Origin: Myxococcales bacterium
Lineage (GTDB): Bacteria > Myxococcota_A > Polyangia > Polyangiales > Ga0077539
Reading direction: 5' to 3'
NCBI GenBank assembly: GCA_031386385.1
Contig: JANNCG010000476.1
Coordinates: 1 to 44,472, forward strand
DNA length: 44,472 nucleotides
Position numbers and translations under genes: made by a program. The notes under the pieces are model-generated. The model saw only the letters and a program-made list of their open reading frames with translations. It searched no databases and had not been told where the DNA came from. Position 1 is the first letter of the stretch. Each line of letters begins with the position of its first letter. Shown here piece by piece: positions 7,407 to 34,861 of the stretch.

Positions 7407-7413
7407 GTTGCCT

Positions 7414-7809: not shown

Positions 7810-7855
7810 CGAGGCTGTCGGCTCTACTCCAACTCGTGCTATCGTTCGAGAAGTC

Positions 7856-8515: not shown

Positions 8516-8556
8516 CGCTGCCAGGCCGCTAACCCAACCCAAGCACCGCTAACGCG

Positions 8557-16832: not shown

Positions 16833-16836
16833 CTCG

Positions 16837-17526
16837 ATGGCTCCTCCAAAAAACAAAAAAGAAGTCGCTCAGCCGTCGCTCGTCGATCAAATCACTCCGC
16901 CAGTGATGGTCGGCCTCGGAATCGGTGCGGTCGCCGCAGTCTGTGTTCTCTACTACTTTTTGGGCTATCAGCCCGTTCAAGAGTCCATCGGCAACGCGCG
17001 TCGCCAGCAGACAGAGCTTGAGACCCAACAACGAAATGCCAACCGTGACCTGCGCGCATACAACGACGATGTTGCCGAGCTCGAACGCTCACGCAACACC
17101 TCGCGTGAGCAGCAGCGCGTACTGCCCAACAACCCCGATATCCCTGGTTTTTTGCGGTCAATCCATCTCACCGCCCAGGACAATCAGCTGCAGATTCAGC
17201 TGATTCAGCCCGAGCCCGAGGTCGTCGATCAGTACTACGTCAAGGTGCCTGTTCGGGTTGAGGTGCAAGGGTCATTTCTTGAGCTCGCTCGGTACTTTCG
17301 AGCGATCGCGAATTTGCCGCGCGTGATCAACATGGAGAACATCGTGCTGAACGATCCCACCGTAGTCGACGATCGTGTGGTCTTAAAAGCACGGATGCTG
17401 GCCACAACTTTTCGCGCCCTCAACGCCGCCGAACAGCGCCGCGCTGCAGATGCTCTTGAGGCTCCCGCCAACGAACCCGCCCGAGCCGGAACACCCGGTC
17501 GCCAAAACGCAGGAGGCCGTCGATGA
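16837..17526 (+). CDS. pilO: Type IV pilus assembly protein PilO
   Basis: TM helix and coiled coil. PilO-like C-terminus (YYVKVPVRVEVQGSFLELARYFRAIANLPRVINMENIVL). 4-nt ATGA overlap with pilP. Confidence 0.75.
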   Translation: MAPPKNKKEVAQPSLVDQITPPVMVGLGIGAVAAVCVLYYFLGYQPVQESIGNARRQQTELETQQRNANRDLRAYNDDVAELERSRNTSREQQRVLPNNPDIPGFLRSIHLTAQDNQLQIQLIQPEPEVVDQYYVKVPVRVEVQGSFLELARYFRAIANLPRVINMENIVLNDPTVVDDRVVLKARMLATTFRALNAAEQRRAADALEAPANEPARAGTPGRQNAGGRR

Positions 17527-18628: not shown

Positions 18629-18979
18629 ATGGTTGCTCACATCCTGGTCGCGGTCGTGGCCCTGCTTCACTCCTACTTTATGGTTCTCGAGATGTTCTTA
18701 TGGACCACCCCGAAGACCGCAAGATCGTTTGGGCGGACCGTTGAGCAGCAAGAGGCTTCGGCAAGTCTCGCGAAAAACCAAGGGCTCTACAACGGCTTTC
18801 TCGCCGCAGGTCTGGTGTGGAGTTATTTTGTCCCATACAGCCACGGTGTCCGTGTGTTTTTTTTGGCCTGCATCGTTGTGGCAGGACTGTACGGCGCTGC
18901 CACCGCGAGCAAGAAGATCTTGTTCGTCCAAGCGGTTCCCGCAGGGCTTGCGCTCGCGATGGTCGTTGCGGGGCTTTAG
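18629..18979 (+). CDS. DUF1304-family small membrane protein
   Basis: 116 aa with four hydrophobic helices. VALLHSYFMVLEMFLW and NQGLYNGFLAAGL are characteristic of DUF1304. Confidence 0.55.
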   Translation: MVAHILVAVVALLHSYFMVLEMFLWTTPKTARSFGRTVEQQEASASLAKNQGLYNGFLAAGLVWSYFVPYSHGVRVFFLACIVVAGLYGAATASKKILFVQAVPAGLALAMVVAGL

Positions 18980-19090: not shown

Positions 19091-21217
19091 TTGGTGTCAG
19101 AAAATATTTCTTCGAGCAATCTTGATGATGTGACGACAGGATCTTCTGATCTTGGACGTTCGAAGACCGCGCGCTTTGAAGCGGGTCAGCCCGCTGAGAC
19201 TGACTCAACACCACCAGCAGACGACCCACGCATTGGGACCATCGTCGCGGGACGCTATCAGCTGCAGCGGTTGCTCGGCGTAGGCGGAATGGGAGCGGTC
19301 TACCTCGGCGAGCACATGACCCTGCACAAGCGCGTTGCGGTGAAGTTTTTGCGCGCAGAGTTCACACAAACCGCGGAGATTGTCACAAGATTTGAGCGCG
19401 AGGCCGTCGCAGCAGCGAAGATTGATCACCCCAACGTGGTGGCGGTCCATGACTTCGGCAAAGACGCTGACGGCAGCGCGTTTTTCGTGCTCGATTTCAT
19501 TGATGGAATCACGCTCGGTGCCCTGCTTGAGACGGAGAAAACGCTCTCGCCTGAGCGGGTCCTTGCCGTCGCAAAAGATGTGGGCGCAGCGCTAGGCGCG
19601 GCTCACAGCAAAGGCATCGTCCATCGCGATCTTAAACCGGACAACGTTGTGTTGGTTCAGCGACCGGGTGAAAGCGATCTCGCAAAGGTCATCGATTTTG
19701 GCATTGCAAAGGACAACTCGGCGTCGAGCCGCGCGGGTGAAAAAGGCGCACCGCTGACCCAAGCGGGGATGATTTTTGGCACGCCGGAGTACATGGCGCC
19801 AGAGCAAGCGCTGGGCGCGGACGTCGATCATCGGGTGGATCTTTACGCACTTGGGGTTTTGTTGTTTGAATCCCTCGCGGGGCAGCGTCCGTACATGGCC
19901 GACGACGTCGTGAGCTTGCTGGGAATGCAGCTGAGCGCAGAGATTCCAAAGATCTCGACGACCACTAACAACCCACAATATGCGATAAAACTCGACGATT
20001 TCTTTACCAAGGCACTCGCTAAACAACGCAACAACCGCTTTGACTCAGCGAGCGAGATGGTCGCCGCTTTTCAAGAGGCCCTTGAAGCCAAGCCCCCCGT
20101 TGCCAAGAGTCCGGATGCCTCTCAGTCTTCGTCAGTGACCGCGGTCACCTCAGCCGTGAGCGGTGTTCCGTCTGCATTTGCCGCGCATCGTGAGTCCATT
20201 TTGGACATCTCGCGGGTGACCGTTCACACGCTCGCGAGTGCGACGCAAGAGGCATGGAAGACCGCCTCGGCCGAGCCCACACAGCGCAAGAGAGTGCTCG
20301 GCGTTGGCGCTGCGGTGCTCGCCTTCGCCGTTTTGCTCGGGCCAGTCCGACACAAAATCGCCCACCGCGCACTTGATCCACTGCCCGAGCAAGGGACAGA
20401 CACACCGACCCACGTCGAGGTCCCTCCCAATCGATCCCACGCCGTCAATTCACTGATGGATCGAGTTCACAATCTGGTCCAACCCGCAAACAACTCAGGG
20501 ACCACACCCATCGTGACGCCCGTGGTGACGGCACGTCCATCGACCGGCAACCTCAGCGCAGATCTCGACACTTTTCGCGCAGATCCACGGATGCACGTGC
20601 TGCTTGATCGTCGCAGCCTTCAGTCAGTGCAGAGCAAGATCGACGCGCTTGAGCAGTATCGATTGACCGATACAAACCCGCTCTTGATTTACACACTCGG
20701 GACGCTTTACGCACAACAAGGTGCCCGTGGCGAGGCGCTCATGCTTGAGCGTTTTGCCGAGGCTCTCGGCGCGCGTCCAGACCTTGCCACGGATGACGAC
20801 CTAGTCGACGGCGTGTTGAGCGTCAAGATGCGCTCGCGAAGCCCCAACACACAACGCGCGGATGCCCTGCTGCACGGGCCCCTTGAGTCCGTGGCACCAC
20901 GCCGGGTGTTTGCGCGGATCGCTCGGGACCGTTCGCGACGCGAACGCGAGCGCAGTATTGCCCTTTTGACCAGAGAATTTCCAGCCTCGATTGATAGCGC
21001 TGCGATTCCGCTTATCGACCTTTATCGAGCGCGCAACTGCAATCAGCTTCGAGTGTCGGTCGAGGCCCTCTCGACCGCAGGTGACGCTCGAGCGCTCGAC
21101 ACATTGCAGACCCTCCCTCGCCCGCCAGCGCGATGCGGCTGGAGCGAGTGCAATCCGTGCCTCGGGACCTCGGTGGACGACGCGATCAGGGCAATCCAGG
21201 CGCGACAACCTCGATAG
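19091..21217 (+). CDS. Membrane-spanning Ser/Thr protein kinase with an uncharacterised extracytoplasmic C-terminal region
   Basis: GVGGMGAVYLGEH, VAVKFL, HRDLKPDNVVL, DFGIAK, GTPEYMAPE. TM helix VLGVGAAVLAFAVLLGPV. The track start is a TTG, so the exact start is uncertain. Confidence 0.85.
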   Translation: MVSENISSSNLDDVTTGSSDLGRSKTARFEAGQPAETDSTPPADDPRIGTIVAGRYQLQRLLGVGGMGAVYLGEHMTLHKRVAVKFLRAEFTQTAEIVTRFEREAVAAAKIDHPNVVAVHDFGKDADGSAFFVLDFIDGITLGALLETEKTLSPERVLAVAKDVGAALGAAHSKGIVHRDLKPDNVVLVQRPGESDLAKVIDFGIAKDNSASSRAGEKGAPLTQAGMIFGTPEYMAPEQALGADVDHRVDLYALGVLLFESLAGQRPYMADDVVSLLGMQLSAEIPKISTTTNNPQYAIKLDDFFTKALAKQRNNRFDSASEMVAAFQEALEAKPPVAKSPDASQSSSVTAVTSAVSGVPSAFAAHRESILDISRVTVHTLASATQEAWKTASAEPTQRKRVLGVGAAVLAFAVLLGPVRHKIAHRALDPLPEQGTDTPTHVEVPPNRSHAVNSLMDRVHNLVQPANNSGTTPIVTPVVTARPSTGNLSADLDTFRADPRMHVLLDRRSLQSVQSKIDALEQYRLTDTNPLLIYTLGTLYAQQGARGEALMLERFAEALGARPDLATDDDLVDGVLSVKMRSRSPNTQRADALLHGPLESVAPRRVFARIARDRSRRERERSIALLTREFPASIDSAAIPLIDLYRARNCNQLRVSVEALSTAGDARALDTLQTLPRPPARCGWSECNPCLGTSVDDAIRAIQARQPR

Positions 21218-22700
21218 CATCGGAAGCAGCCACGGACTGGCCCCCAGCAACGAGCGCAACGCGCAACCTAGAGCCTGCAGCAACGCCATCGATTCGCATG
21301 CCAACGGAGAGCTCTCCGCTGTCGGCGAGAATCCTAGAGTTCACGCCGTTGTTTGTCGTATCGCGGTCACTTCGAGCGAGGGCCGCACACCACGGCCAGC
21401 TTGTCTGCCCGCGCAGCTGCACACAAACACGCCAGGCCCCATCGAGTCGCTCAAAGCGGCGTTCGAGTGCTCCTTGGCGCCACTGCAGTGCTTGCACCGA
21501 CGCGTCGGGGGCATAGTACACACCACCGTCGCTTACCCCGATGGGTGGGTTGGTCAGCGTTTGATCGGCAATTTGCAGGACCGCAACCACCCCGAGGCTC
21601 CCCTGTTCGCGGCTCACTGCCACACGAGAGAGCGTCGGTTGGCGATCTGAGGGACGGACACTGCCACCCGCGACAAGCTGCATCGCTCGCTCGCCACAGG
21701 GGTTTGTCGCGCCTGCAAAACTCGCACAGTCACGGCACGAGCAACCATCACAGACCGGAGGCTCAACGACATCGGCGGCGCCTAGTCTCTCTCGAAGCCA
21801 CTGCTCAAGCGTCAGCTCAGTGCTGCTGTTGGGGACGCTCGCAACCCAAGCTTGATGAAATCTCTCAGCGGCAGCTCGACCCACATATCGAAAATGCCAC
21901 GGCTCATATTTGTATCCCGTTCGCGGATCGACAGCGCCGCGAAACTCTGGTCGTGCCAAGCAGTCCGACCCCACGCGGCGATAGTCAGGATGCAATGGAT
22001 ACGCGAGCACAAATCCGTGTCTCCAGCTGTTTGTTTGCAGCCAACGACCACCGGGAGAGCAACCAAAACCCTCGCGAAAAATAGTTCCCCCACGCGCCCA
22101 CGCCTGAGTGAACAGATCAATCGCGGTCCCGAGCTGGTGCTGCGAGTGCCCAGGAATCGCGCTCGCGCTCGTCGCGGGACAAAATCCCATCGCGCTTGGG
22201 GGGCGCCACGCCCATTTTGCGAACACATCACACTGCACCGAAAACCCCCTAAACGCAGAGTGCAGCAACGGTTGGTGTCCAGCGCTCCGCATCTGTTGCG
22301 TCATCGTGCCAAACGCCTCTGCAGCTTCGCGCCGAAGACACTGACGATCTGCATGTAGGCAGCTTGCAGTCGATGCAGCCTGCGCGGTCCTAGCGTCCAC
22401 TAAATCCCTGGGAAAATACTGCGGCGACAACACCCATCGCGGCGATCGATTCACCAGCGCGAGCAGATCGTCGCCGTCGACGGCTGCCACCGGGGGAGCA
22501 AAATCAATGGGAGCAACGAAGTGCCCTCCTGCGTCCGGTTGGGTGAGTCGACCGCAGTATTGCGACAATACGGCACCAGCGTCCGTGCGCAACGCGGGTA
22601 CTGGACGACGAGTTTGGTGACTCACCTGAGCCGCAGCCACGGCACCGACCACAAGAACGACGGTCACAGCAACGGACGAAGTCGCTCTCGTTTGGGACAC
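21186..22700 (-). CDS. M15B (VanY-like) D-alanyl-D-alanine carboxypeptidase family protein with a ~200-aa unknown C-terminal extension
   Basis: ORF 21186..22865. A start at the in-frame GTG 22700 (VSQTRATSSVAVTVVLVVGAVAAA, a TM/signal segment) removes the overlap with 22721. Motifs: SAFRGFSVQ, GHSQHQLGTAIDL, GFVLAYP, YEPWHFRYVG. The 3' end overlaps the convergent kinase gene by 32 nt. Confidence 0.7.
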   Translation of the reverse strand: MSQTRATSSVAVTVVLVVGAVAAAQVSHQTRRPVPALRTDAGAVLSQYCGRLTQPDAGGHFVAPIDFAPPVAAVDGDDLLALVNRSPRWVLSPQYFPRDLVDARTAQAASTASCLHADRQCLRREAAEAFGTMTQQMRSAGHQPLLHSAFRGFSVQCDVFAKWAWRPPSAMGFCPATSASAIPGHSQHQLGTAIDLFTQAWARGGTIFREGFGCSPGGRWLQTNSWRHGFVLAYPLHPDYRRVGSDCLARPEFRGAVDPRTGYKYEPWHFRYVGRAAAERFHQAWVASVPNSSTELTLEQWLRERLGAADVVEPPVCDGCSCRDCASFAGATNPCGERAMQLVAGGSVRPSDRQPTLSRVAVSREQGSLGVVAVLQIADQTLTNPPIGVSDGGVYYAPDASVQALQWRQGALERRFERLDGAWRVCVQLRGQTSWPWCAALARSDRDTTNNGVNSRILADSGELSVGMRIDGVAAGSRLRVALVAGGQSVAASDAIEVVAPGLP

Positions 22701-22720
22701 AATATCGATACAATTAGCAC

Positions 22721-25700
22721 ATGGATTGCGGCAGCAGGTACCGTTTGCACACCCCTGGACCAAAACGCGCGAGCAGCGTGTTGCACAGAGGTTTCGTTTT
22801 AGCTGCGATCGCTTTCTGCAGTGTCTCCAGTTGCGCAACCAACTCAACACGAAGCAGCCAGACAACGGGCGCTGTTCGCGGGCAGCCTCCCCGAACCATT
22901 GGCGTCACCGGATCACCGTCCACAGCCACACGGACCGCCGGCCAAACGACAGGGACCCGCATTATCGCCCTAAGCGATCTGACGGACATTGTGGTGGTAA
23001 ACCCCATTCACGCACCAGAGGTACCGCTCCGAGTATTACTTGGAAGCATTCGAGCAGAGATTGACGTCAACAACGCTGTAAGGCTGAGCAACGATCGCAC
23101 CGCAACGAGTCTGATCGCCGCGAGCGAAGCGCGCAATGGCAAGTGGGTCTTTGTCACGATGGACGGTTTAGTCGTCAGAAGCGAGTCGTTTTTGGGACCC
23201 ATTGAGCGTGCGGGAGAGAGCAACGGAGACGCCTTTCGAGTGGCTGTGGGGCGCGGCGCAATCTACTACCGTGATCGAAGGCATCAGGGGTGGCTTGCGA
23301 CCGTTGAGCATGGTGTGCGCAAGTGGCCTGACGTCGCGGTCTTGAGTGGCGCATTTCTCAGCCCCGAGCGGGGCGCATACATCGATTTTGCGGGCGATTT
23401 GTGGGTCACCAGCGACGCGGGTCGCTCCGCTCAAAAAGTATCGCTGACTCCGCAATCCGCAGACATGATCGAGATCCGCCACGATCGCTTGGAGGTCAGC
23501 ACTTCGGCTGGGCACAGATTGCTGCTGGACAACAGGACGCTTGAGCCGATCCCGGCTGCGCCTCCATTCACAAGAGAGCTCACTGCCGCCCGCCGCTGGG
23601 CGTTGCTGCAAGCAGCGCTGCTCCGGTGGCCACAATCAGTGTGGAGTTTAATCGACAACTTGCAAGGCTCTCTCGATTCTCCCTGGTTTGTTTTTGATCG
23701 AGACATCGTGCAGGTGGATCCCAACTCAGGGGCCATTCAGAGCGTCGACCGGGACGTCCTACCCAATCGCGACTGTGCGGTTCGCGCTTGGGGATCACGT
23801 TATCTCATCAACTGCCCGCCGTCTGAGCAGTCTTTTTTGTGGTCTCGAGAGGAGGGCAGGCGGTTGTTCAGCTCGCCGAGATTCAGAGAGATTTTGCTCT
23901 CAAATGATGGGCAACACGCGTTGTCAAACGAGCCCTGCGTTGAGCCCAACTACGCCATCTCGTCACGTCGCTTCGACGCCTCGAATAGCTGTGTGTGGCT
24001 CTCAAACTCGACCCGCTGGAGCCCCCTTGGAGCCGCGAGTCGATTTTCACACAGCGACGCCCTGAACGGCTCACGAGCGATCGGACAATTTCTGTCGGGA
24101 AGTCAGATGATTTTACGTATCCGAGACATCGAGTCTGGGGCATCTGATTTGCTCTCCAGCGAGCCGGGACCCGAGGGAGCGAGGCGCGAGGTCATGAGTG
24201 GACAGTTCGCAGCCGATGGCACTCCTTACGGCCTGATGGTGGCAGAGCGCACAGCGCAGACCCTAGCCGCAGAACCAAGCTTTCTCATGGCCCGGTGGCC
24301 AGACCTGCGCGCGGTGGTATCGCCCAGTCCGCTGCCCACTGGATTTCAAGCGCTCGGGATGCAAACGGCGAGCAACGGCTACGCTGTCGGAGCGACTGGC
24401 AGCGAGATTTGGCAGACACTGGATGGGGGTGCACAGTGGCAACACTTGGAGCTTCCCATTGATGGGGCGCCAGGTGCGATTGAGGTTCATGCAAACTATT
24501 CACGGCGTCAGTATCTCCCGTGCTCTCTGGACCGATGTCTATTGGGAGGATTTCTTGTCGAAGGAAGCGGACCCATCGTTCCGTTTGGCGAACGCGTCCT
24601 CGCGTCGACCACGCCGTTTGTTGTCAGCAACATGCAGCGATGGCAATCGATGCTTCGATCCGCGTATCAAGGCCGAATTTCTGGCGTCGAAACCAGACGT
24701 TTTGTCTGCACATTAGTGCGCTCGATCCCTTCAGCGGGTGGCCACCGACTTCGCGGCGCCGACATTGAGTTAGCGCTTCACGCGACCGAGACCGCGGACC
24801 ACCACATTGCGCTCTCTGGCTCGTGGACCTTCGGTGACTCGGCACCCAGTACAATGGTCCCGGGACTGGCACCGCTGCCGGTCACTGGGGCTCGCCATGC
24901 CATGCCGCCCGACACCGGCTGGACCGTGCGGTACGGAACCCGCGATTGGGTCCTCGTCGACCGCTGCGTGATCTCCGACCCACCGAGACGCTGCGACCAT
25001 CTGATCGTGTCACGAACCTCAGCGCCCACGCGTTTAGCTGTCGATGAAAACGTCACCGTTTTGGATCAAGACGACGGCGCTTTTTTAGCAGCCACCAAGA
25101 CTCGTCCTGGTGTCCACGCTTTGCTCTTCAACACGAGCGCAAACTCCGAGCAGTGCAGCGAGGTTCTCGTTCTCGTCAACGACAGCGCCTCAACGCTCGC
25201 CCGACGCCACATGAGCTGTCCGGGCATGGAACCCTTTGACGCTGCGCTCGCTATACGTGAAAATTTGCTGGGTATTATTCGACTGCAGCGCTCCGCGTTG
25301 GATTCCATTCCGAGCGCTCATGCCTTCTTTCCGCTGTTTAATGGCGCGGTTGCGGTAAACGAACCCGCCCAGCCGCTGCCATCGTTTAACGCCAACGGCA
25401 CCAGCGTGTTGAATCGAGCTACTCGCCTTCCCAATCCCCACTCACTTCTCGTATTCGGCGCTGGCGCAGGGCTATCCGCCACGGCTTCGTACTCTGAGCG
25501 TTATTATTCAGATTGGAATGGTCGAGTCGAGGCCGAGCTGGCGCCCAACGGCGACTGGACGATTCGGTCTTTGCAGTCCGCTCAGCGATCGGGTCGAGGC
25601 GGGATGGATGGTCGAGGCCCACCGCCCGTTTCGGGCGCGATCAGCGTTCACACACCAACAACGGCAGGTGCCCACGTCCTTGAGGGCACCTTTCGCGATG

Positions 25701-25741
25701 ATCGCCGAACGGTTTACGTTCAGTGCGAAGAGATGCAGTGA
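22721..25741 (+). CDS. Large hypothetical lipoprotein (1006 aa) with one or two BNR/Asp-box-like motifs
   Basis: Long ORF. Lipobox FCSVSSC; alternative starts GTG 22778 / TTG 22781 give a tighter signal peptide. WQTLDGGAQWQHL and VTSDAGRSAQ resemble Asp-box motifs. Otherwise unrecognisable. Confidence 0.55.
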   Translation: MDCGSRYRLHTPGPKRASSVLHRGFVLAAIAFCSVSSCATNSTRSSQTTGAVRGQPPRTIGVTGSPSTATRTAGQTTGTRIIALSDLTDIVVVNPIHAPEVPLRVLLGSIRAEIDVNNAVRLSNDRTATSLIAASEARNGKWVFVTMDGLVVRSESFLGPIERAGESNGDAFRVAVGRGAIYYRDRRHQGWLATVEHGVRKWPDVAVLSGAFLSPERGAYIDFAGDLWVTSDAGRSAQKVSLTPQSADMIEIRHDRLEVSTSAGHRLLLDNRTLEPIPAAPPFTRELTAARRWALLQAALLRWPQSVWSLIDNLQGSLDSPWFVFDRDIVQVDPNSGAIQSVDRDVLPNRDCAVRAWGSRYLINCPPSEQSFLWSREEGRRLFSSPRFREILLSNDGQHALSNEPCVEPNYAISSRRFDASNSCVWLSNSTRWSPLGAASRFSHSDALNGSRAIGQFLSGSQMILRIRDIESGASDLLSSEPGPEGARREVMSGQFAADGTPYGLMVAERTAQTLAAEPSFLMARWPDLRAVVSPSPLPTGFQALGMQTASNGYAVGATGSEIWQTLDGGAQWQHLELPIDGAPGAIEVHANYSRRQYLPCSLDRCLLGGFLVEGSGPIVPFGERVLASTTPFVVSNMQRWQSMLRSAYQGRISGVETRRFVCTLVRSIPSAGGHRLRGADIELALHATETADHHIALSGSWTFGDSAPSTMVPGLAPLPVTGARHAMPPDTGWTVRYGTRDWVLVDRCVISDPPRRCDHLIVSRTSAPTRLAVDENVTVLDQDDGAFLAATKTRPGVHALLFNTSANSEQCSEVLVLVNDSASTLARRHMSCPGMEPFDAALAIRENLLGIIRLQRSALDSIPSAHAFFPLFNGAVAVNEPAQPLPSFNANGTSVLNRATRLPNPHSLLVFGAGAGLSATASYSERYYSDWNGRVEAELAPNGDWTIRSLQSAQRSGRGGMDGRGPPPVSGAISVHTPTTAGAHVLEGTFRDDRRTVYVQCEEMQ

Positions 25742-25781: not shown

Positions 25782-27065
25782 TCAACTGCCACCATGCGTC
25801 GGCGTGCGCATAAAACGGATGTACTCCGCCAACTCTTTCTGCAACTCTGACGACGGGTCAATCCATTCAAGTCCCAACGCGACCCGACCGTTGTTCTCTT
25901 TTTGCCACCGAACAACTGCGTTCAACTGCACCATCTGCCCTGAGATCGGCAGCGAAAACTTGATCTGCACGATCTCGCCTGCTGGCCGCTTTGCCTTCGT
26001 GATCAACAATATCCCGCCTTCGGATACATCTTCGGACCGGCAATCTTGCGACTCTCCGTTGAGGATCAATCGAACAGGGGTTATGTACGCCGCTCTTGCG
26101 TTGCGTCGCTGTTCTGCCCCCGTCGGAGCTAGAACGGGAGACAGGGGTGGGGTCTCTTTTGGACCACCTAGTGATGGTATGGCGATGGGAGCGGCCGAAC
26201 CTTGAAGGGCAACGATTACCTCGCGGAGAGTCTGTGGCCGATCTTCTCGTTGATACGCCAGCATTTTTGCGACTAGTTTAGATAGCTCTGGATTAATATT
26301 ATGTACGAGCGTTATCAGCTCCGGTGCTACCGAGGCTAAATGCACGGACTTAAATCGCGCCATCGCGTCGTTTCCGAGTGGAAGTGCGCCAGTCAACGTC
26401 TCAAATAGTGATACACCAAACGCAAATATGTCAGAGCGTGAGTCAATCTGATCGTGGCGCGTGTGCACCTGCTCGGGCGCCATATACTCAACGGTGCCAA
26501 GCAGCTCGCCGGCGAATGTCAGTTTTCTTGTCGGTTCTTGCTGCTTCTTCGAGAGACTTGAGACTCCAAAATCAAGCAATTTTACCGCGTACTTTCCGGA
26601 CCCACTGTTGAGCGCGACAAAAATGTTTGCCGGCTTAATGTCACGGTGCACAAAGCTAATTTCGTGCAATCTTGCGAGCGTGGTCGCGAGGGGGATAAAG
26701 ATTCTCATGACCTCTTCGGGGCGCAGGCAACCGCGCGCAACGATGAGCCCGTCAAGTGGACGCCCAATCAGGTGTTCCATGACGATGTAGATGCCAAACT
26801 TCGCGCACTCACCAGCGCCCAAAATTTCAACGACGCCTTCGCCGCGTGCCATCTCCAAAAACTGAGCTTCTCTCAGAAGCCGCGCCCGAAACTCTTCGTG
26901 ATGCTTCTTCTCAGTCGGGAGCACCTTAATCACAACACGACGTTTCGTGATTGTGTGTTCGGCTTCGTAGATGTCGCTCATGCCTCCTCGCGCGAGAAGT
27001 CGTCGAATCGCATAGTACTGATCGACAAGCTCATTGTCGGTCCCACTGTCAGTCATTGCTTTCAT
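25782..27065 (-). CDS. Ser/Thr protein kinase with a C-terminal PilZ (c-di-GMP-binding) domain
   Basis: ORF 25782..27242, with the likely start at Met60 (27065) or Met63 (27056). Kinase: ARGGMSDIY, VVIKVL, HRDIKPANIFV, DFGVS, YMAPEQ. PilZ: RRNAR (RxxxR, nt 26108-26094) and DVSEGG (DxSxxG, nt 26030-26013), followed by a beta-barrel-like tail. Confidence 0.85.
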   Translation of the reverse strand: MKAMTDSGTDNELVDQYYAIRRLLARGGMSDIYEAEHTITKRRVVIKVLPTEKKHHEEFRARLLREAQFLEMARGEGVVEILGAGECAKFGIYIVMEHLIGRPLDGLIVARGCLRPEEVMRIFIPLATTLARLHEISFVHRDIKPANIFVALNSGSGKYAVKLLDFGVSSLSKKQQEPTRKLTFAGELLGTVEYMAPEQVHTRHDQIDSRSDIFAFGVSLFETLTGALPLGNDAMARFKSVHLASVAPELITLVHNINPELSKLVAKMLAYQREDRPQTLREVIVALQGSAAPIAIPSLGGPKETPPLSPVLAPTGAEQRRNARAAYITPVRLILNGESQDCRSEDVSEGGILLITKAKRPAGEIVQIKFSLPISGQMVQLNAVVRWQKENNGRVALGLEWIDPSSELQKELAEYIRFMRTPTHGGS

Positions 27066-27287
27066 CTCCGTATCGAGTTGGTTTCGGTCACTCTTCGCAT
27101 CCAGAGCGACGCGACGAACCCTATCAGAGCGAGATAGCGAGTGTCGAGCACGACAGCTTTGTCGGACCCTGGCGTCGCGGCCAACGCCAAATACCTCATT
27201 AACTTCGCCAAAGCGGCCAGTGCAAATTGTACACCGCGCCAACCATAAACTCCGATAGCATGGAGGGAGTTAGGTGGAGGCCATACC

Positions 27288-28691
27288 TTGAATCAATCTG
27301 CACGGCGGGTACTCGTCATTGACGATTCAAAGACGATTCATGCGGTATTGACCGCTTTTTTGTCTGAACGTGGCTGGGTCGTCGAGACATTCTTCGACGG
27401 CGAATCGGGAGCCTCGGCAGCTTTTCAGCAGCCGCCAGATGCAGTCATCTGTGATCAATCCATGGGTGGAATCTCGGGCATTCAACTGTGTCGGTTGCTC
27501 CGCGAAGATCCGCGGACTGCCACCATTCCAGTCGTCATTCTCACGGCAACGACCACCAAGCAGGGTCAATTTTGGGCGATGGAATCTGGCGCCAGCGGCT
27601 ATGTCGCCAAAACGGCAATCGCGACGCTCGTACCGATGATTGAGAGTTTGAAAGCAATCCCGAAACGCGTTCGGCGAACTTCTGCACCAGATACAGCACA
27701 TTTGAGCGTCTCGCAGCGACTGGGTCACCTGCTGGACTCTTCGCTCTTTGACGCGATGCTGAAGAATAAGTTTATGGCCATCGCGACGGCTTCTGACTCA
27801 ACGGCAACGCTCTTCGCAAGTGTGGCAGAGCTGCTTGCGAGTGTTCTTTCGGTTCAGTGGATCGCCCTGAGCGTGACGGGAGAACCAAAAGCGTTTTTGC
27901 TCTGCCGTCCGGGTGATCAGTCAGCAGAGCTTGAGGCACGCAGCGCATTACAGCTTGACACCAGGTCTGAACTCGAGACGACTCAAAGCGACAGGTGTGT
28001 GCTGGCTGGCCCTGAACGAACTAGAGCCGTGCGCCCGTTGGTATTTGCCGAGCAGGCAATTGGACGGCTCGTGCTTGAGCTCTCCCATGAGAATTTGTCC
28101 GCGCAGGATCATGTTGTCGTCGATATCGCAGAGCAGCAAATTCCTGTCGGATTGCAGCTTGTGAGGCTCATCGAACAAACCACAAAGCTTGCCATGACGG
28201 ATGCGCTCACAGGCATCAGCAACCGGCGATGTGGCGTCGACAACCTTGAGCGAGCGCTCTCAGCTTCATCAAGGCACGGGACTCCGCTTTGCATCGCGAT
28301 GGTTGATGTGGACCACTTTAAAAGTGTGAACGACCGCTTTGGGCATGACGGTGGCGATGTTGTCCTCAAAGCAGTCGCCTCCATTCTCTCTCGATCGATT
28401 CGGCGCTCGGATACTGTTGCTCGTTGGGGAGGTGAAGAATTCTTGCTGCTTTTTCCCCAAACCGCCAGACAAGGCACGCTTCTCGTCTGCGAACGTCTGC
28501 GACAGGTCATTGCCGGTCGGAGTCTCGATACCGCCACTGGGGCGAAGCTGACGGTGACTGCGTCAATTGGGGTCGCCGTCGCGGCCGAAAGCGACACGGC
28601 TGAATCGCTCTTACGTCGCGCTGACGATGCGCTCTATCAGGCGAAAAACTCCGGTCGAAATCGTGTCGTAGGACCGGTCGATGAGTCGTAG
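27288..28691 (+). CDS. Response-regulator receiver + GGDEF diguanylate cyclase
   Basis: REC: VLVIDDSKT, acceptor Asp in VICDQSM, VVILTA, YVAKT. Middle ~150 aa of unknown (GAF/PAS-like?) fold. GGDEF: GGEEF at nt 28428-28442, with an I-site RRSD five residues upstream. TTG start. Confidence 0.85.
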   Translation: MNQSARRVLVIDDSKTIHAVLTAFLSERGWVVETFFDGESGASAAFQQPPDAVICDQSMGGISGIQLCRLLREDPRTATIPVVILTATTTKQGQFWAMESGASGYVAKTAIATLVPMIESLKAIPKRVRRTSAPDTAHLSVSQRLGHLLDSSLFDAMLKNKFMAIATASDSTATLFASVAELLASVLSVQWIALSVTGEPKAFLLCRPGDQSAELEARSALQLDTRSELETTQSDRCVLAGPERTRAVRPLVFAEQAIGRLVLELSHENLSAQDHVVVDIAEQQIPVGLQLVRLIEQTTKLAMTDALTGISNRRCGVDNLERALSASSRHGTPLCIAMVDVDHFKSVNDRFGHDGGDVVLKAVASILSRSIRRSDTVARWGGEEFLLLFPQTARQGTLLVCERLRQVIAGRSLDTATGAKLTVTASIGVAVAAESDTAESLLRRADDALYQAKNSGRNRVVGPVDES

Positions 28692-28967
28692 TCGGCAAGA
28701 TTGATCCACCCGATGATCGCGCCATGCCACAGTCGGCGGCCGTTCAGTTCATGATTGCCGAATCTTCGAATCGTGTGATGCGGAGGCTGCTGAGTCGGAG
28801 AAATGACTGAAAAATGATTGGCCAAAGTGATCCTGAAAAATCGAAAAGCGCCGCATTGTATATCCCATCGAATTCCGTATACTCAACCAGCAACTTCACG
28901 AGTTCGGGACACTGTCAATTTAAACTGGACCATCCACCAGAACCATTAAACCAAATACCTTTTCATA

Positions 28968-30149
28968 TTGCGGGGAACTCTCATGACTCAACGATCATCG
29001 TCGGCAAAAATTTCAGGGTTGCATAGAGTCGCAGTATTGACGACGACTCCGACCAGCAGTTGGCCCAATGCAGCCGCGTTGACAGGCGAGTATGTGGTTC
29101 ACTTTGAGACACTTGAGCAACTGCAAGGACACTCAGATCCGCTGACTTGGCATCTGATCATCATGGACCATGCAATCGTCCGAGAGCGGTTCTCGATCGG
29201 TGAACTCACGAGTTTGCGCGAGTTGTTTGCCAATAGCACGCTGTTGATTCTTGAGGAAGTTGGCTCGCCCTCAGTCCCAAAAGCGGCCTCAAAACTTGGC
29301 TTCCGTACGACCATCCGTCCTACGGATGACTTAGCATTCGCGATTTTGATTCGCGACGCGCTGAGTGGCATCGGACAGAGTTTTGACGCGATCGCCGAAC
29401 CCACGTCGGTTTCTGGAGCAAGACCGACTCGCAATCCGCGACAGTCCGCGATGGATCTCGCGCTCACTATGGTGCGGATGCATTTTCAGCCCATCGTCCA
29501 GTGGAGCACACGGTCGGTGTTTGGATACGAAGCTCTCTGTCGCTGTGAGCACCCAAGTTTTCGAAATCCGCAAACGCTATTTGATGAGGCCGAAAGCCTC
29601 GATCGGTTGCAAGAACTGAGTCGGTGTGCTCGTTCGGCGACGGGCGCACTCATTGGATCGGCGCCGCTCGGCGTTAAATCATTGGTCAACATCCACGTTC
29701 GAGATCTTCTCGACGAGGAGTTGTTCAATCCCGATGGCCCCCTCGCAAAAAACCCCGCCCACGTCGTCATCGAAATTACTGAACGGGCATCGCTTCTTGA
29801 GATCCCCGACGCCCACGCGCGCATCGCTCGGCTGCGTTCGATGGGATATCGCATTGCGCTTGACGATTTAGGTGCTGGATATTCAGGACTCACGCTCGTC
29901 GGGTTGATTGAGCCTGAGATCGTGAAGATTGACATGTCGCTTGTTCGCGATATTCACCTGTCAAAAACCAGACAATTGGTCGTTCGCTCACTCTTGCGGC
30001 TCGCCGTCGACATCGGAGCCGAGACGATCTGCGAAGGCATTGAGACGCGCGAAGAGCGGGATGTCCTCATTGATCTGGGCTGCGATTTGTATCAGGGCTA
30101 TTTTTTCGGCAGACCTGCCAGCGGATTTACAGCTCCAAAGTTTGATTAG
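28968..30149 (+). CDS. EAL-domain c-di-GMP phosphodiesterase with a degenerate receiver-like N-terminal domain
   Basis: EAL at nt 29529-29537 (FGYEALCR), NIHVRDL, VIEITE, ALDDLGAGYSGL, KIDMSLVR, EGIETREE, QGYFFGRP. The catalytic set looks complete. Alternative start at Met6 (28983). Confidence 0.8.
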   Translation: MRGTLMTQRSSSAKISGLHRVAVLTTTPTSSWPNAAALTGEYVVHFETLEQLQGHSDPLTWHLIIMDHAIVRERFSIGELTSLRELFANSTLLILEEVGSPSVPKAASKLGFRTTIRPTDDLAFAILIRDALSGIGQSFDAIAEPTSVSGARPTRNPRQSAMDLALTMVRMHFQPIVQWSTRSVFGYEALCRCEHPSFRNPQTLFDEAESLDRLQELSRCARSATGALIGSAPLGVKSLVNIHVRDLLDEELFNPDGPLAKNPAHVVIEITERASLLEIPDAHARIARLRSMGYRIALDDLGAGYSGLTLVGLIEPEIVKIDMSLVRDIHLSKTRQLVVRSLLRLAVDIGAETICEGIETREERDVLIDLGCDLYQGYFFGRPASGFTAPKFD

Positions 30150-30279
30150 AGCGCTCCGTTGAGCAATTGTAAGCAACCTTCTGGCGCTCATTCGCTTGTG
30201 GCCCGACGGAGGTGCCCTCGCAAGTGAGCCCCCTTGCGCTCACCCCGCCTGCACGCGCATCCTCACGTCCTCGCAACCG

Positions 30280-31356
30280 ATGACATCTGAAGCACTCTAC
30301 CTGACCGACCTACCCGCAGTCTCTGCCGCCGCCCGATCGCGCAGCTCAGCGCTCGGACCTGAAAAATCTCTGCTAGATCGCCGTCATTTCGTCCAGCGCG
30401 CGCACCTCACGTGCCCCGCGACGCAGTGGAAGTACGTTGAATCTGCCGTGACCAAGAGCTCCGCAGATCTGGTCATGCTTGATCTCGAAGACTCGATTCC
30501 TCGTGGCGATGAAGCCGCACTCGCGACGGGTCGCAACAACGTGGTGCGTGCCTTCAGCGAGCTCAACTGGGGTGCGCGTTTGCGATACTTTCGCCCCCGA
30601 GGGACGCTGCTGGATCCGGGGCACGAAGATCTCGTTTATGTATTAAGTCGCATCGGCCAATGGGTTGAAGGAGTGACTCTGCCAAAAATCAATTCACCAG
30701 CTGAATTGCAGTCATTTGATCATACGATTTCAGCGATTGAGAAGCTCTGCGGTATCACTCATGGCACCATTAAAGTGCAGGTGTTGATCGAGTCAGTCAT
30801 CGCAGAAGAGGCCGCCTTTGCGATCGCGGGCGCGAGCGAACGGCTAAGCGCCCTCATTTTTGGCGCGTTTGACTATTGGGGATCGCTTCGGATAGCATCG
30901 GTGGCCTATCGCGTGGATCATCCCTTCGTGATGAACGCCCGCGAGCGCATCGTCAAAGCTGCGGCGAGTGTGGGCGTGCCAGCGATCGCTGAGATGACGC
31001 TAGCTTTTCCGACGCGGGACAAATCCGAGCTCGAGCGAACCGCGGCAATCACGCAGTGTCGGCTCGATTCGCAGCTCGCCAAGTCGCTCGGAATGCAGGG
31101 CAAATGGACCGGCATCCCCGCACAGACTGAGGTCGTTTTGTCAGTCTTTTCACAAGATAAACTCGTTGTGGATGGGGCTATTGCTCAAGTCCGGGCCTTC
31201 GCGCAGGCTGAGCGTAGCGGACGAGGTGCGATCATGATCGATGGTCAAATGGCCGACCGCGCAACCGACCGCGTGCAGCGCATGATCCTCGCCCATGCGC
31301 TCGCGCAGGGGATGCTAGACCCAGCGATCGCTCACGAGCTAGACATCCAGCATTAA
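30280..31356 (+). CDS. HpcH/HpaI aldolase / citrate lyase beta-subunit (CitE)-like protein
   Basis: ORF 30196..31356, with the probable start at Met29 (30280). DLVMLDLEDSIPRGDE and the overall TIM-barrel-like pattern are typical of CitE / malyl-CoA lyase-like enzymes. Confidence 0.55.
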   Translation: MTSEALYLTDLPAVSAAARSRSSALGPEKSLLDRRHFVQRAHLTCPATQWKYVESAVTKSSADLVMLDLEDSIPRGDEAALATGRNNVVRAFSELNWGARLRYFRPRGTLLDPGHEDLVYVLSRIGQWVEGVTLPKINSPAELQSFDHTISAIEKLCGITHGTIKVQVLIESVIAEEAAFAIAGASERLSALIFGAFDYWGSLRIASVAYRVDHPFVMNARERIVKAAASVGVPAIAEMTLAFPTRDKSELERTAAITQCRLDSQLAKSLGMQGKWTGIPAQTEVVLSVFSQDKLVVDGAIAQVRAFAQAERSGRGAIMIDGQMADRATDRVQRMILAHALAQGMLDPAIAHELDIQH

Positions 31357-31381: not shown

Positions 31382-32365
31382 TTACAGCCAATGGTTGTCG
31401 CGATACCAAGCGGCGCTCAGCTTGGCGCCCTCAGAGAAGTCTACCGAGGGCTTCCACTGTAAGTCGCGACGAGTTGAGTCTGTCTCAAACTCAAAGTGCT
31501 TAATCGCCAGCTCGTTGACCTTGTCCTTTGTGAACATCATCGGTTTGTTCGCAAGCCGTCCGAAGGCCTCGCTGGCTCGTGCGGCCACCCGCAAAATTCC
31601 CAACGGAATGATCGGCCGTCCCCAGGTCTCGACGTTGAGCGCGCTCGCGATCTCCGTCGCCATTTGATCAAAGCTTCGAGGCTCTCCGTCGGTCACAAAG
31701 TACACACTCCCCGATGCGACATCCGCGTCGATGGCACGGATACACGCTGCGGCGCAGTCGGGTCCATAAACAACCTCCATCGAGTCAAACCCGCCTCCCA
31801 TTTTAAAGGCAACTCCGTACGAGACCATCTGAAAAAACGCGAACATTTCTGGATCTCGCGCGCCATAGATCGCCGGTGGGCGCAGGACTGTGATCGGGAT
31901 CTTTGCGCTCAGCGCGCGTACACCCTCTTCGCCACGAAGCTTGCTTCGGCCGTACTCAGTGACGGGATTTGGAGCCGTGTCGCGTTGATGCTTTTGCCCC
32001 GGCTCGCTGGGCCCCATCAGGGCCGCTGTTGAGACCAGCACAAAGCGTTTAATGCTGGGATTGTGCTCAGCGACTGCCTCTGCAAGCGCGACCGAACCTC
32101 GGTGATTGACGGCATCAAACTCCTCGGCGTTGCGAGCTTTGACGAGCCCCGCGCAGTGAATCACCGCGTCGACGCCCTTGACCGCCGCTGGGAGCGTGTC
32201 GGCTTGATCAACGGCACCAAACGCAAGCTCGACACCGAGCTTTTCGAGGTACTTCGTGTTCGATGATTTGCGCACCAAACACCGGACCTGCTGGTTGTCA
32301 GCCAGTAGTTGTTCTGCGACGTGTGAGCCTAAAAATCCGGACGCGCCGGTGACGAGAACTTTCAT
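31382..32365 (-). CDS. NAD-dependent epimerase/dehydratase (extended SDR) family protein
   Basis: The internal ATG at 32365 gives MKVLVTGASGFLGSHV, a Rossmann GxxGxxG motif. YGRSK provides the catalytic YxxxK. This start lies 8 nt downstream of the stop of the upstream gene (32373). Confidence 0.8.
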   Translation of the reverse strand: MKVLVTGASGFLGSHVAEQLLADNQQVRCLVRKSSNTKYLEKLGVELAFGAVDQADTLPAAVKGVDAVIHCAGLVKARNAEEFDAVNHRGSVALAEAVAEHNPSIKRFVLVSTAALMGPSEPGQKHQRDTAPNPVTEYGRSKLRGEEGVRALSAKIPITVLRPPAIYGARDPEMFAFFQMVSYGVAFKMGGGFDSMEVVYGPDCAAACIRAIDADVASGSVYFVTDGEPRSFDQMATEIASALNVETWGRPIIPLGILRVAARASEAFGRLANKPMMFTKDKVNELAIKHFEFETDSTRRDLQWKPSVDFSEGAKLSAAWYRDNHWL

Positions 32366-32372
32366 CGGCTGC

Positions 32373-33503
32373 TCACAGAGCCTTTTCGTAGACGCGATAG
32401 GTTTTATATATTTTAGCACCCATCGCCTTGATTCCCACGTTGACCGGGGCGTTGTCTTCGAGAGTCCAAGACAGCTCGCCGTGAGTCATTCCGAGCTTCG
32501 CCGCGCGATCATTCATCTCGGCATAGAGCGCCACAGAAAGGGGTGCCCACTTTCGCTGATCGCGATACTTTTTTCGCACACCAAGCAGGACCAATCGCGC
32601 AGACTTGGTCCCTGAGCCCTTCAAGCGATACAAAAACTTTGCCCAGCCGAACGGAAACAAGCTTCCATTCAGATCTCGCGCCGCCTCGTTGAGGTTTGGC
32701 AACGCCACCGCGATCGCCGCTGCCTCGCCGTCAATCTCTGCCACAATGGCGATTTCTGGCCGCAAAATCAGCTTAAAGTCGGCAACGGTCTTCTTCATTT
32801 CGGGCTCTGTCATGGGGACAAAGCCCCAGTTCGAGCTCCAAGTCTCGTTGAAAATGTCCATCACGATCCGAGTGTCACGCTCCATCTCACTCATATCGAC
32901 TGAGCGGATTTTGAGCGCGGGATCTTTTAGCAGCTCAGTGTGTGCTCGACGGGCTCGCGGCGGGACCTCGCCGACAACGTAATTCCACGCGTAGAGATCT
33001 TTGATCTTTTCGAAGCCAGCGCCCTCAATGAGCTTGTGCTGATACGCGCGGTGGTGCGGCATCATGACCGACGGAGGGGTATCAAACCCGTCAATCAAAC
33101 ACCCGGTCTCTTCGTTGATGCTCAGCGACATCGGACCGCGCATTTTGGTCATCCCTTTGGACTGCAACCACTCTGCGGCGGTTTGCAACAGCGCCTGAGC
33201 AACCTCGGCGTCGTCAATCGTGTCAAAAAAGCCGAAAAATCCCACGCCGTCGTGATAGCGCTCGGTGTGCTCGCGGTCGATCTGAGCGGTACAGCGACCC
33301 ACAAGCTCGCCATTTTTCTTCGCGACGAAATAGATCGCTTCGGCGTGGAGAAAGAAAGGATTTTTCTTCGGGTGAAGCTGATCCTCAAAGAGCATTTCAA
33401 GCGGCGCAACCCAGTTGGGATCCCCCTCAAACACCCGGTACGGAACTTTGACGAACTCTTTGATGCTCTGGCCGGGTTCAATCCGGATAATCTCGACAGT
33501 CAT
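32373..33503 (-). CDS. GNAT-like N-acyltransferase family protein (~375-aa family of unknown substrate)
   Basis: The internal ATG at 33503 gives MTVEIIRIEPGQSIKEFVKVPYRVFEGDPNWVAPL... MRGPMSLSINEETGCLIDGFD and LFPFGWAKFLYRLK match a conserved family usually annotated as GNAT. This is recalled from memory, not searched. Confidence 0.45.
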   Translation of the reverse strand: MTVEIIRIEPGQSIKEFVKVPYRVFEGDPNWVAPLEMLFEDQLHPKKNPFFLHAEAIYFVAKKNGELVGRCTAQIDREHTERYHDGVGFFGFFDTIDDAEVAQALLQTAAEWLQSKGMTKMRGPMSLSINEETGCLIDGFDTPPSVMMPHHRAYQHKLIEGAGFEKIKDLYAWNYVVGEVPPRARRAHTELLKDPALKIRSVDMSEMERDTRIVMDIFNETWSSNWGFVPMTEPEMKKTVADFKLILRPEIAIVAEIDGEAAAIAVALPNLNEAARDLNGSLFPFGWAKFLYRLKGSGTKSARLVLLGVRKKYRDQRKWAPLSVALYAEMNDRAAKLGMTHGELSWTLEDNAPVNVGIKAMGAKIYKTYRVYEKAL

Positions 33504-33619
33504 GTAGGTTTTCAACGCGCCTTTTAGCTCTTTTTTGACCCAATTGTGAGCGTGTTTATGGGTCGAAACAGCACCCAATGAGCTTTGTATTAGGCTATAC
33601 TCCTCGGTCAACACACCCT

Positions 33620-34861
33620 ATGCCCGCCATGGTCTATCGCCCCAAAGCCCACAAGCTATCCCTCGCGCTGGTCCTCCTCGCAGCGGGAATTACCGTTGAG
33701 ATTCAAGCCTTTGCACAGCAAGCTGAGCCGACGATAGAGCAGCGTCGTGAAGCGGGAATGGCCTATTCTCGCGCTTCGGCGCTCAGAGCGGGCGGCCAGC
33801 ACGAACAGGCGGCGGGACTTTTTGAGACGGCGAACCGGTTAGCTCCAAGCGTTCAGGCGCTGGGCAACGCGATCAGAGAGTACCGAGAACTCCACAATCC
33901 CCAAAGCGAGATGCGAGCGGCCAACCTGTCCCTTCGTCTGTTGTCTCGGTATGGAAGTGACCCTCGCTTCGCAGAATACGCCAACCGAGTCATTCTTGAG
34001 ACCTCGCCAACGCTCGTCCGAATTGCGGTGTCGTGTGATGGATGCACCGTTGAAGCGGACGGTGCGCTGCAAAACGATGCAGAGTTTTTTGTCCAGCCCG
34101 GCGCACATACACTGACCGCACACTGGCCTGGCCCACGTGAGCGTGAGCATCGGCTTGGCAATCTCCGAGCGGGGACGTCAGAAAACGTCACGATTCTCCC
34201 AACGCCCGAGCGAGCGGTCGGACGCCCAAACAACGCGACAACAACCATCGCGGCAACCAACGGCACAAACAACGGATCGAGTAACAGCTCGAACACTACG
34301 GCGGTCTCGACTCCGGCGACCGCGTCACAGCATGTTGATACCGAGCGACCGGGCGCGGTGAACGCCAACGGCGGCGCGGTCACAGATCCGACCCACACAG
34401 CGACCGGTACTGGGACAGGCACAGGAACAGGCACTGGAAGCTCAGACGCTGGAGGCGAAGGATTTGGCAACGGGTTAGTCCAGCCTCCGCCGCCGAGCCG
34501 CGGTGGTATTCACCCTGCAATTTTTCTCACAGCGACCGCTTTGACTCTCGGCGCTGGAGGCGTATTGGTCTGGTCGGCGCTTGACGCCAACGCTGGGGTG
34601 CCAGCGTACCAAGCTGCGGCAAGTTTGAGCGGCGACAGCCAAGAGGCGTACAACGCCGCGTCGCTGCTTCTTGATGATGGCCGTGGTCGAGAACTGCGCA
34701 CGAACATCCTTATTGGCGTTACCTCGGGATTGGGTGCTATCGCAGTAGGTACATTGATTTTCACCCGCTGGAACCGAAGCGAACGAGCACCGACGACCGT
34801 CGCCCGGTTGATCCCAGGCTTTGGTCCATCCCCTACCCTCACACTTTGCGGGACATTTTAG
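33620..34861 (+). CDS. Hypothetical exported/membrane protein (TPR-like N-terminal part, Asn/Thr/Gly-rich linker, C-terminal TM helices)
   Basis: ORF 33578..34861. Met15 (33620) gives the signal-like MPAMVYRPKAHKLSLALVLLAAGITVEIQAFAQQ. Two predicted TM helices lie near the C-terminus. The 3' end overlaps the next kinase ORF by 16 nt, or is separated by 2 nt if that kinase starts at GTG 34864. Confidence 0.5.
   Translation: MPAMVYRPKAHKLSLALVLLAAGITVEIQAFAQQAEPTIEQRREAGMAYSRASALRAGGQHEQAAGLFETANRLAPSVQALGNAIREYRELHNPQSEMRAANLSLRLLSRYGSDPRFAEYANRVILETSPTLVRIAVSCDGCTVEADGALQNDAEFFVQPGAHTLTAHWPGPREREHRLGNLRAGTSENVTILPTPERAVGRPNNATTTIAATNGTNNGSSNSSNTTAVSTPATASQHVDTERPGAVNANGGAVTDPTHTATGTGTGTGTGTGSSDAGGEGFGNGLVQPPPPSRGGIHPAIFLTATALTLGAGGVLVWSALDANAGVPAYQAAASLSGDSQEAYNAASLLLDDGRGRELRTNILIGVTSGLGAIAVGTLIFTRWNRSERAPTTVARLIPGFGPSPTLTLCGTF
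34403..34438 (+). repeat. Imperfect 6-nt coding microsatellite encoding (Thr-Gly)6
   Basis: aa 276-287 of ORF 33578 read TGTGTGTGTGTG (accggt actggg acaggc acagga acaggc actgga). Confidence 0.8.

Follow-up and report, generated by a model that had tools for sequence, protein, structure and literature searches.

A family of Hanks-type kinases with motif-intact PilZ domains linked to cyclic di-GMP turnover genes in Myxococcota

Introduction

The second messenger cyclic di-GMP (c-di-GMP) works through effectors whose known targets are enzymes, transcription factors, motors and riboswitches. Here we describe three adjacent genes at positions 25782-30149 of a 44,472-nucleotide (nt) contig from a Myxococcales bacterium (JANNCG010000476.1, assembly GCA_031386385.1; this whole stretch is called the window below). 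They encode a Ser/Thr kinase fused to a PilZ domain, a predicted diguanylate cyclase and a predicted EAL phosphodiesterase. Judging from sequence, we think it fairly probable that the trio is a self-contained accessory c-di-GMP signalling cassette of a Polyangia-type myxobacterium, with the PilZ-kinase as its receptor and output.

One kinase-PilZ fusion has been studied experimentally, Myxococcus xanthus Pkn1 (MXAN_1467), which is needed for normal sporulation (PMC8316039, PMC8844925) and is cited among PilZ fusions (bioRxiv 10.1101/814665). Like the window protein, Pkn1 is myxobacterial, with its Hanks kinase at the N terminus and its PilZ domain at the C terminus. The PilZ domain of Pkn1 lacks the conserved c-di-GMP-binding motifs and is predicted to be a non-binder (PMC8844925). 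Compared by description, Pkn1 is a long protein with a degenerate PilZ domain, whereas members of the family described here span 420-460 amino acids (aa), carry RxxxR and DxSxxG and lie beside c-di-GMP turnover genes. The joining of a kinase to PilZ is thus already known from Pkn1, and what is new is a family with intact motifs and its linkage to turnover genes. The literature we searched, with incomplete coverage, contained no report of a c-di-GMP-regulated Hanks-type kinase.

Canonical PilZ effectors such as YcgR, BcsA, Alg44, Tlp1-type chemoreceptors and M. xanthus PixA and PixB have in common with the window PilZ domain a barrel, an RxxxR motif in the linker, a DxSxxG motif and a C-terminal helix. 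They share its logic, whereby an output attached to or associated with the PilZ domain changes once ligand is bound, but in the window protein a eukaryotic-like protein kinase would take the place of that output. The window cyclase resembles PleD and WspR in its N-terminal phospho-receiver, its C-terminal GG(D/E)EF domain and an RxxD inhibitory site (I-site) five residues upstream of the active site. It differs in its middle, which is GAF-like in place of the second receiver-like adaptor of PleD or the coiled-coil stalk of WspR. The EAL protein matches REC-EAL phosphodiesterases of the PvrR and RocR types in length (~390 aa) and in its succession of receiver-like domain, linker and catalytic EAL domain, but its receiver has decayed, as have those of the copies in one related contig (locus L001, below).

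Results

A canonical PilZ domain joined to a Hanks-type kinase

Genes of the window were mapped by Pfam and NCBIfam profile scans of large open reading frames (ORFs; most of at least 150 aa, covering all non-overlapping gene candidates). The kinase-PilZ gene (25782-27056, minus strand) encodes a single polypeptide of 424 aa with the Hanks kinase at the N terminus (Pkinase, 141 bits) and the PilZ domain at the C terminus. The catalytic domain (26232-27011, minus strand) carries the complete Hanks-type set: K44 in VVIKV (26922-26936), E63, H137-R138-D139-K141-N144 in HRDIKPAN (26625-26648), D162-F-G (26565-26573) and A-P-E195 (26472-26480). The PilZ domain (25815-26114, minus strand) scores 58.4 bits against a cut-off of 22.5 for PF07238 and covers profile positions 1-101 of 102. 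Its RxxxR motif reads RRNAR (26094-26108) and its DxSxxG motif reads DVSEGG (26013-26030), the two being spaced 21 residues apart, and a C-terminal helix follows at residues 403-417. By profile and motifs alike, this is predicted to be a PilZ domain of the c-di-GMP-binding type. A first-pass annotation of the contig had described the protein as a PilZ receptor with intact RxxxR and DxSxxG fused to a kinase, and had placed a cyclase and a phosphodiesterase directly beside it; all three genes, with every motif that it named, lie where it put them.

An AlphaFold model of the kinase-PilZ protein has a predicted local distance difference test score (pLDDT) of 86 and a predicted template-modelling score (pTM) of 0.84. 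A fold search with the whole model gave kinase matches only, as expected, and the modelled kinase domain resembles Mycobacterium tuberculosis PknB (target-normalised template-modelling score 0.90). A low-confidence linker of ~30 residues follows, ending at RxxxR, and the PilZ part folds as a canonical barrel together with the long C-terminal helix described for PilZ domains of this type (bioRxiv 10.1101/814665). A sequence search of PDB chains with the PilZ segment returned zero significant matches.

The start of the gene is likely ATG 27056, which we prefer over the in-frame upstream ATG 27065 because it has GGAG 9 nt upstream, yields the 424-aa database form and agrees with orthologues. The first-pass annotation had the kinase-PilZ and cyclase genes diverging from a shared 222-nt region. 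The divergence holds, and the length depends on the start codon: the region measures 231 nt (27057-27287) from ATG 27056 and 222 nt only from ATG 27065. Aligned with the equivalent spacers of two other trio-bearing contigs (L170 and L001, below), it shows zero conserved motifs.

A protein search recovered ~40 full-length relatives of 404-464 aa that combine Pkinase and PilZ, and those with a named source are from Polyangiales or Myxococcota. Thirty-one of these proteins, taken from the protein search without selection for motifs and 31-61% identical to the window protein, were aligned. Kinase residues K44, E63, H137-R138-D139, K141, N144, D162, T188 and E195 are invariant, as are R317, R321, S345 and G348 of the PilZ domain, and D343 is at least 90% conserved. 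The alignment places the window protein in a coherent Myxococcota family of 420-460 aa. The top database matches are 61% identical for the kinase-PilZ protein and 59% for the cyclase, and the 90% clusters of all three trio proteins are singletons.

Duplicates of kinase-PilZ genes are frequent, either in tandem or close by (L001:3045-4358 and 7401-8672; L003:8544-11296; L145), and one Polyangiales genome (GCA_041389885.1) holds at least four paralogues over three contigs. A more distant member (L088:10001-12806) is followed by a gene for a REC and Pkinase fusion and then by a double-kinase gene, a signalling neighbourhood of a different kind from which c-di-GMP turnover genes are absent.

Predicted writer and eraser genes

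The cyclase gene (P0121; 27288-28691, plus strand) encodes 467 aa with a receiver (27309-27617; Response_reg, 72 bits), a divergent middle domain (27708-28196) and a GGDEF domain (28191-28664; 159 bits). The receiver retains the complete phospho-acceptor set (D12, D13, D56, T86 and K108). The I-site RRSD (28401-28412) and the active site GGEEF (28428-28442) are separated by five residues (RRSD-TVARW-GGEEF), and R372, D375 and G381-F385 are invariant among 47 cyclase homologues. The earlier description of a writer with GGEEF and an RRSD I-site under a receiver domain is therefore confirmed. That annotation had also seen no histidine kinase for the receiver in the window, in agreement with our scan, in which the large ORFs gave zero matches to HisKA or HATPase_c.

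The middle domain of the cyclase comprises ~160 residues and carries no Pfam name. In the AlphaFold model of the protein (pLDDT 93), residues 141-303 form a pair of helices, a pair of strands, one helix, three more strands and then a long helix, and weak GAF matches occur in 4 of the 47 family members. A fold search with the whole model returned PleD and WspR matches, as expected, with PleD structures best. Since the search gave PleD and WspR only, our assignment of the middle as a divergent GAF-like domain, made with moderate confidence, draws on the order of secondary structure and the weak GAF matches in relatives. The protein scores 226.7 bits against the NCBIfam PleD model (NF007135), below its equivalog cut-off of 474, and is not assigned to that family.

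The EAL gene (28983-30149, plus strand) encodes 388 aa, of which the EAL domain (29472-30116; 169 bits) contains EALCR (29529-29543), the asparagine of VNIH (29685-29696), EITE (29772-29783), DDLG (29862-29873), KID (29925-29933), EGIE (30033-30044) and QGY (30093-30101). The catalytic set is complete, as had been claimed for this eraser, and it coincides with the positions that 23 related EAL proteins conserve at 95% or more. The first 160 residues can be aligned to the receiver of REC-EAL orthologues, and the receiver-like part (~29022-29357) is degenerate. The acidic pair has been lost (TTT and a four-residue insertion stand there), as have the Thr and the Lys, the latter now Arg; the Asp position alone is kept. 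Pfam Response_reg finds no match in the protein, and the residues of a phospho-accepting receiver are missing. Both EAL copies of L001 have likewise lost the acidic pair, Thr and Lys, together with the match to Response_reg, and the L170 copy has no Response_reg or REC match. By these residues, the N terminus of the window protein is a pseudo-receiver.

Between the cyclase and EAL genes lie 291 nt (28692-28982; G+C 0.478), the most AT-rich stretch examined. Given this AT-rich separation, the two genes need not form an operon, and the gap probably holds a promoter or leader of the EAL gene itself. A gap of ~200-240 nt occurs at the same place in L170 and L001, and alignment of the three revealed no sequence conservation. 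Rfam returned zero matches, c-di-GMP riboswitches included, either in the trio at permissive thresholds or in the whole window at gathering thresholds, and a promoter and terminator scan gave counts within ~2 standard deviations of shuffled controls.

Turnover genes accompany the kinase-PilZ family

To place the trio in its family, metagenome contigs, many of them short, were scanned with the PilZ segment of the family, and the resulting loci were searched with hidden Markov models (HMMs) for kinase, PilZ, GGDEF, EAL, REC and Pil proteins. After reduction at 90% identity, 77 kinase-PilZ genes were retained. An EAL or GGDEF gene lies within 1.5 kilobases (kb) of 24 of the 77 (16 EAL, 9 GGDEF) and within 10 kb of 29; among the 36 genes with both flanks of at least 1.5 kb, 11 have such a neighbour. 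The control comprised 80 generic-kinase loci returned by a contig scan with the full-length family alignment, in which kinase motifs dominated. Here an EAL or GGDEF gene was found at 0/80 within 3 kb and at 1/80 within 10 kb (24/77 versus 0/80, Fisher p = 4e-9), and the 19 control loci labelled Myxococcota contain zero EAL or GGDEF domains in 303 kb.

The commonest arrangement, seen in at least 10 loci, consists of a REC-EAL gene, a gap of 21-96 nt and the kinase-PilZ gene on the same strand. The linked EAL proteins all have one architecture of ~390 aa and are mostly genuine REC-EAL proteins. This pattern points to a phosphodiesterase and a PilZ-kinase as the conserved core, with the cyclase as a frequent third partner.

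The full trio recurs in three further contigs (L170, L001 and L171), with its order rearranged and with unrelated flanks. The closest, L170, encodes proteins 73% (kinase), ~70% (cyclase) and 73% (EAL) identical to those of the window; its kinase gene diverges from the cyclase gene, which is followed by the EAL gene, a TPR gene and rpsL-rpsG-fusA. L001 has the same arrangement of kinase, cyclase and EAL genes, at 61%, 51% and 52% identity over full length, and additionally a second kinase-PilZ and EAL pair. In L171 (37-56% identity by domain) the order is cyclase, kinase-PilZ, EAL. Two looser arrangements were also found. In L002 (kinase 43%), a GAF-GGDEF gene diverges from the kinase-PilZ gene and a REC-EAL gene lies 3 kb away in a phosphorelay cluster; in L084 (kinase 47%), a REC-EAL gene converges on the kinase-PilZ gene. 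Histidine kinase genes adjoin REC-EAL in both. The recurrence of the trio together with the linkage counts speaks for the c-di-GMP module that the first-pass annotation had proposed.

A gene for a PilZ-sigma-70 fusion of 336-366 aa lies near kinase-PilZ genes in three contigs (L002:11336-13301, L171:14195-15679 and a JGI 3300059473 contig). An opposite-strand gene of 135-148 aa precedes it, directly after kinase-PilZ in L002 and the JGI contig and after EAL in L171; this arrangement is not present in the window. Such neighbourhoods suggest a connection between c-di-GMP, kinase and sigma factor, and hint at transcriptional targets, not pili, as a lead.

The trio lies incidentally between pilus genes

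The trio had been described as nested between the two halves of a type IV pilus gene set. This is literally correct. A run of pilM, pilN, pilO and a pilP-like gene (15112-18560, plus strand) lies on one side and pilQ (40404-42002, minus strand; TIGR02515, 426.7 bits versus a cut-off of 284) on the other, on opposite strands and ~22 kb apart. As a functional link, the nesting does not hold up. The pilMNOP genes are 7.2 kb from the trio, with four annotated genes between: a small membrane protein gene (DUF1304-like; 18629-18979, plus strand), a kinase gene (19091-21217, plus strand), VanY (21186-22865, minus strand) and a gene for a 1006-aa protein (22721-25741, plus strand) that forms the left flank. 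On the other side, pilQ is 10.3 kb away, with eight genes between, of which one for an HpcH/HpaI-type aldolase or lyase (30196-31356, plus strand) forms the right flank.

A relative that shares this region lacks the trio. On contig ERZ12298642 scaffold_1360_c1 (73,210 nt), PilQ is 93% identical to that of the window and PilM falls in the same 90% cluster as the window PilM. Two loci of this relative (L174 and L172) are collinear with window positions 3094-44472 at ~68-80% nucleotide identity. Gene order is as in the window, with pilMNOP split from an oppositely oriented pilQ and the intervening genes kept. A 1018-aa gene, the orthologue of the 1006-aa gene (43% identical at the protein level), ends 26 nt before the HpcH gene, where the window has 4454 nt carrying the trio. 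Database matches reach no more than 61% for the kinase-PilZ protein and 59% for the cyclase and the 90% clusters are singletons, from which it follows that the assembled relative is without the trio. Because the relative keeps both the pil split and the intervening genes, we regard the position of the trio between pilus genes as incidental.

Kinase-PilZ loci other than the window gave no PilM, PilN, PilO or PilQ (83 domain-scanned loci, L170, L171 and a JGI gene table), and the trio orthologues of L170, L001 and L171 are without pil genes in their available flanks. The proposal of a dedicated pilus circuit, which had been drawn from the nesting, fails on both counts. On this gene content we reject membership of the cassette in a type IV pilus locus, and the trio would appear to have no bearing on pilus biology.

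How the trio came to its present place may be approached from composition and flanks. Its G+C content is 0.543 against 0.585-0.594 in the window flanks, and the L170 and L171 trios match their hosts; the low value is weak evidence of recent transfer. A homologue of the 1006-aa protein is encoded two genes away from the L001 trio, which speaks mildly for an ancestral adjacency, with loss in the relative, over insertion in the window. The 1006-aa protein itself has zero Pfam or NCBIfam matches and evolves fast: its identity is 43% to the syntenic orthologue, against 93% for PilQ, and 28% to a 994-aa protein of L001.

The split of the pil genes is geometrically compatible with one old inversion that had one of its breakpoints between pilP and pilQ. 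Inverted-repeat pairs of 29, 23 and 19 nt (72-84% complementary) occur near the pilP and pilQ ends; we discarded them as inversion marks, as they resemble chance-level matches throughout the region and not insertion sequence (IS)-type repeats. An inversion of the pil locus is a geometric possibility only. The window PilQ is short, at 532 aa without an AMIN domain, while many Myxococcota PilQ matches have 720-770 aa with AMIN.

Proposed mechanism and alternative explanations

In the mechanism that we propose, the REC/GAF-like/GGDEF protein would make c-di-GMP. It would probably be activated when a histidine kinase encoded elsewhere phosphorylates D56, with a ligand of the GAF-like domain perhaps as a further input, and limited by feedback through its RxxD I-site. 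The EAL protein would hydrolyse c-di-GMP; since its receiver has decayed to a pseudo-receiver, it is probably constitutive or regulated by protein contacts. Bound to RRNAR in the linker and DVSEGG on the barrel, c-di-GMP would reposition the PilZ domain relative to the kinase and change kinase activity or substrate choice, so that the c-di-GMP level is passed on as Ser/Thr phosphorylation. The first-pass annotation had likewise proposed a dedicated unit with protein phosphorylation as its output. Recurrence and linkage support the unit of writer, eraser and receptor; control of the kinase by c-di-GMP is inferred. The accessory nature of the cassette follows from its absence in the syntenic relative, the singleton 90% clusters and best matches of only 61% and 59%.

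For the family as a whole, we tentatively extend this proposal. The ~430-aa kinase-PilZ proteins may be c-di-GMP-gated Hanks-type Ser/Thr kinases that travel with their own phosphodiesterase, ancestrally a REC-EAL protein in the same operon, in some lineages also with their own cyclase, as a portable three-gene cassette, and in others beside a PilZ-sigma-70 gene.

Several points weigh against a c-di-GMP-gated cassette. Neither a substrate of the kinase nor a partner histidine kinase is identifiable in the window. PilZ motifs are no guarantee of binding, as PlpA, which has them, did not bind c-di-GMP (PMC8316039). Two thirds of the kinase-PilZ genes are without a turnover gene within 1.5 kb, so that tight linkage is no more than a tendency. 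The pattern used to retrieve the metagenome set held part of DxSxxG, which makes motif presence in that set partly a matter of construction and leaves the 31-protein alignment as the unbiased sample. Because the focal loci supplied the sequences for the GGDEF and EAL HMMs, the sensitivity of these in control loci may be lower.

The same facts bear unequally on the other ways of reading the locus. A local c-di-GMP circuit reserved for the type IV pilus, acting on assembly, motility or exopolysaccharide, would draw on the pilMNOP genes and genuine pilQ that flank the region, and c-di-GMP controls motility that depends on type IV pili in M. xanthus (PMC4686200). We nevertheless hold it to be highly unlikely: the pil genes are 7 and 10 kb away beyond VanY, kinase, ribF, epimerase, GNAT and other genes, the syntenic relative keeps the split pil genes and their intervening genes with 26 nt in place of the trio, and trio orthologues and other kinase-PilZ loci come without pil matches. 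Most improbable of all is that the three genes are functionally uncoupled chance neighbours in a genome where kinases and c-di-GMP genes abound. Myxobacterial genomes do encode many Ser/Thr kinases, of which the window has four others, and the 291-nt gap and divergent orientation mean that the three genes are not one transcript; but the orthologous trio stays together in four contigs despite new order and flanks, and the difference between 24/77 and 0/80 leaves little room for coincidence.

Of more weight, though still unlikely, is that the PilZ domain is unresponsive to c-di-GMP or is there for docking only, or that the kinase acts upstream, phosphorylating the cyclase or the EAL pseudo-receiver to set the c-di-GMP level. 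Docking is suspected for Pkn1, whose PilZ domain lacks the motifs, and for PlpA, non-binding despite its motifs (PMC8316039, PMC8844925). In the clade of the window, L001 and L170, the EAL receiver is without aspartyl-phosphorylation residues and no histidine kinase lies nearby, which leaves room for another input, and many loci have kinase-PilZ as the gene immediately downstream of REC-EAL, with operon-like spacing. The invariance of R317, R321, S345 and G348 at 31-61% identity is, however, not easily accounted for if no ligand is bound. Feedback and output are roles that the kinase could fill side by side.

If gating by c-di-GMP is correct, the family would link c-di-GMP directly to protein Ser/Thr phosphorylation, a connection not demonstrated before. 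With intact binding residues, a dedicated eraser and sometimes a writer, it is a clean test case for cross-talk between second messenger and Ser/Thr phosphorylation in myxobacteria, and its main value lies in offering a tractable candidate for a c-di-GMP-gated Ser/Thr kinase.

Wider gene content of the window

The window has a G+C content of ~59%, metagenome-assembled genomes of Polyangiales or Myxococcota supply its closest protein matches, and Ser/Thr kinases are abundant. Upstream of the pil genes lies a LysM-M15 peptidase gene (13680-14861, minus strand). Between the HpcH gene and pilQ are genes for an epimerase (31382-32419, minus strand), a GNAT protein (32373-33614, minus strand), an unknown protein (33578-34861, plus strand), a kinase (34846-37173, plus strand), ribF (37223-38167, plus strand) and a DUF4912 protein (38177-39487, plus strand); purK (42808-43965, minus strand) lies beyond pilQ. 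A gene at 2223-7247 (plus strand) encodes a 1674-aa fusion of kinase, STAND/AAA NTPase, TPR, GAF, sigma-54 activator and HTH_8 parts. The syntenic relative (1643 aa) and a Polyangiales genome (L003) encode giant proteins resembling it.

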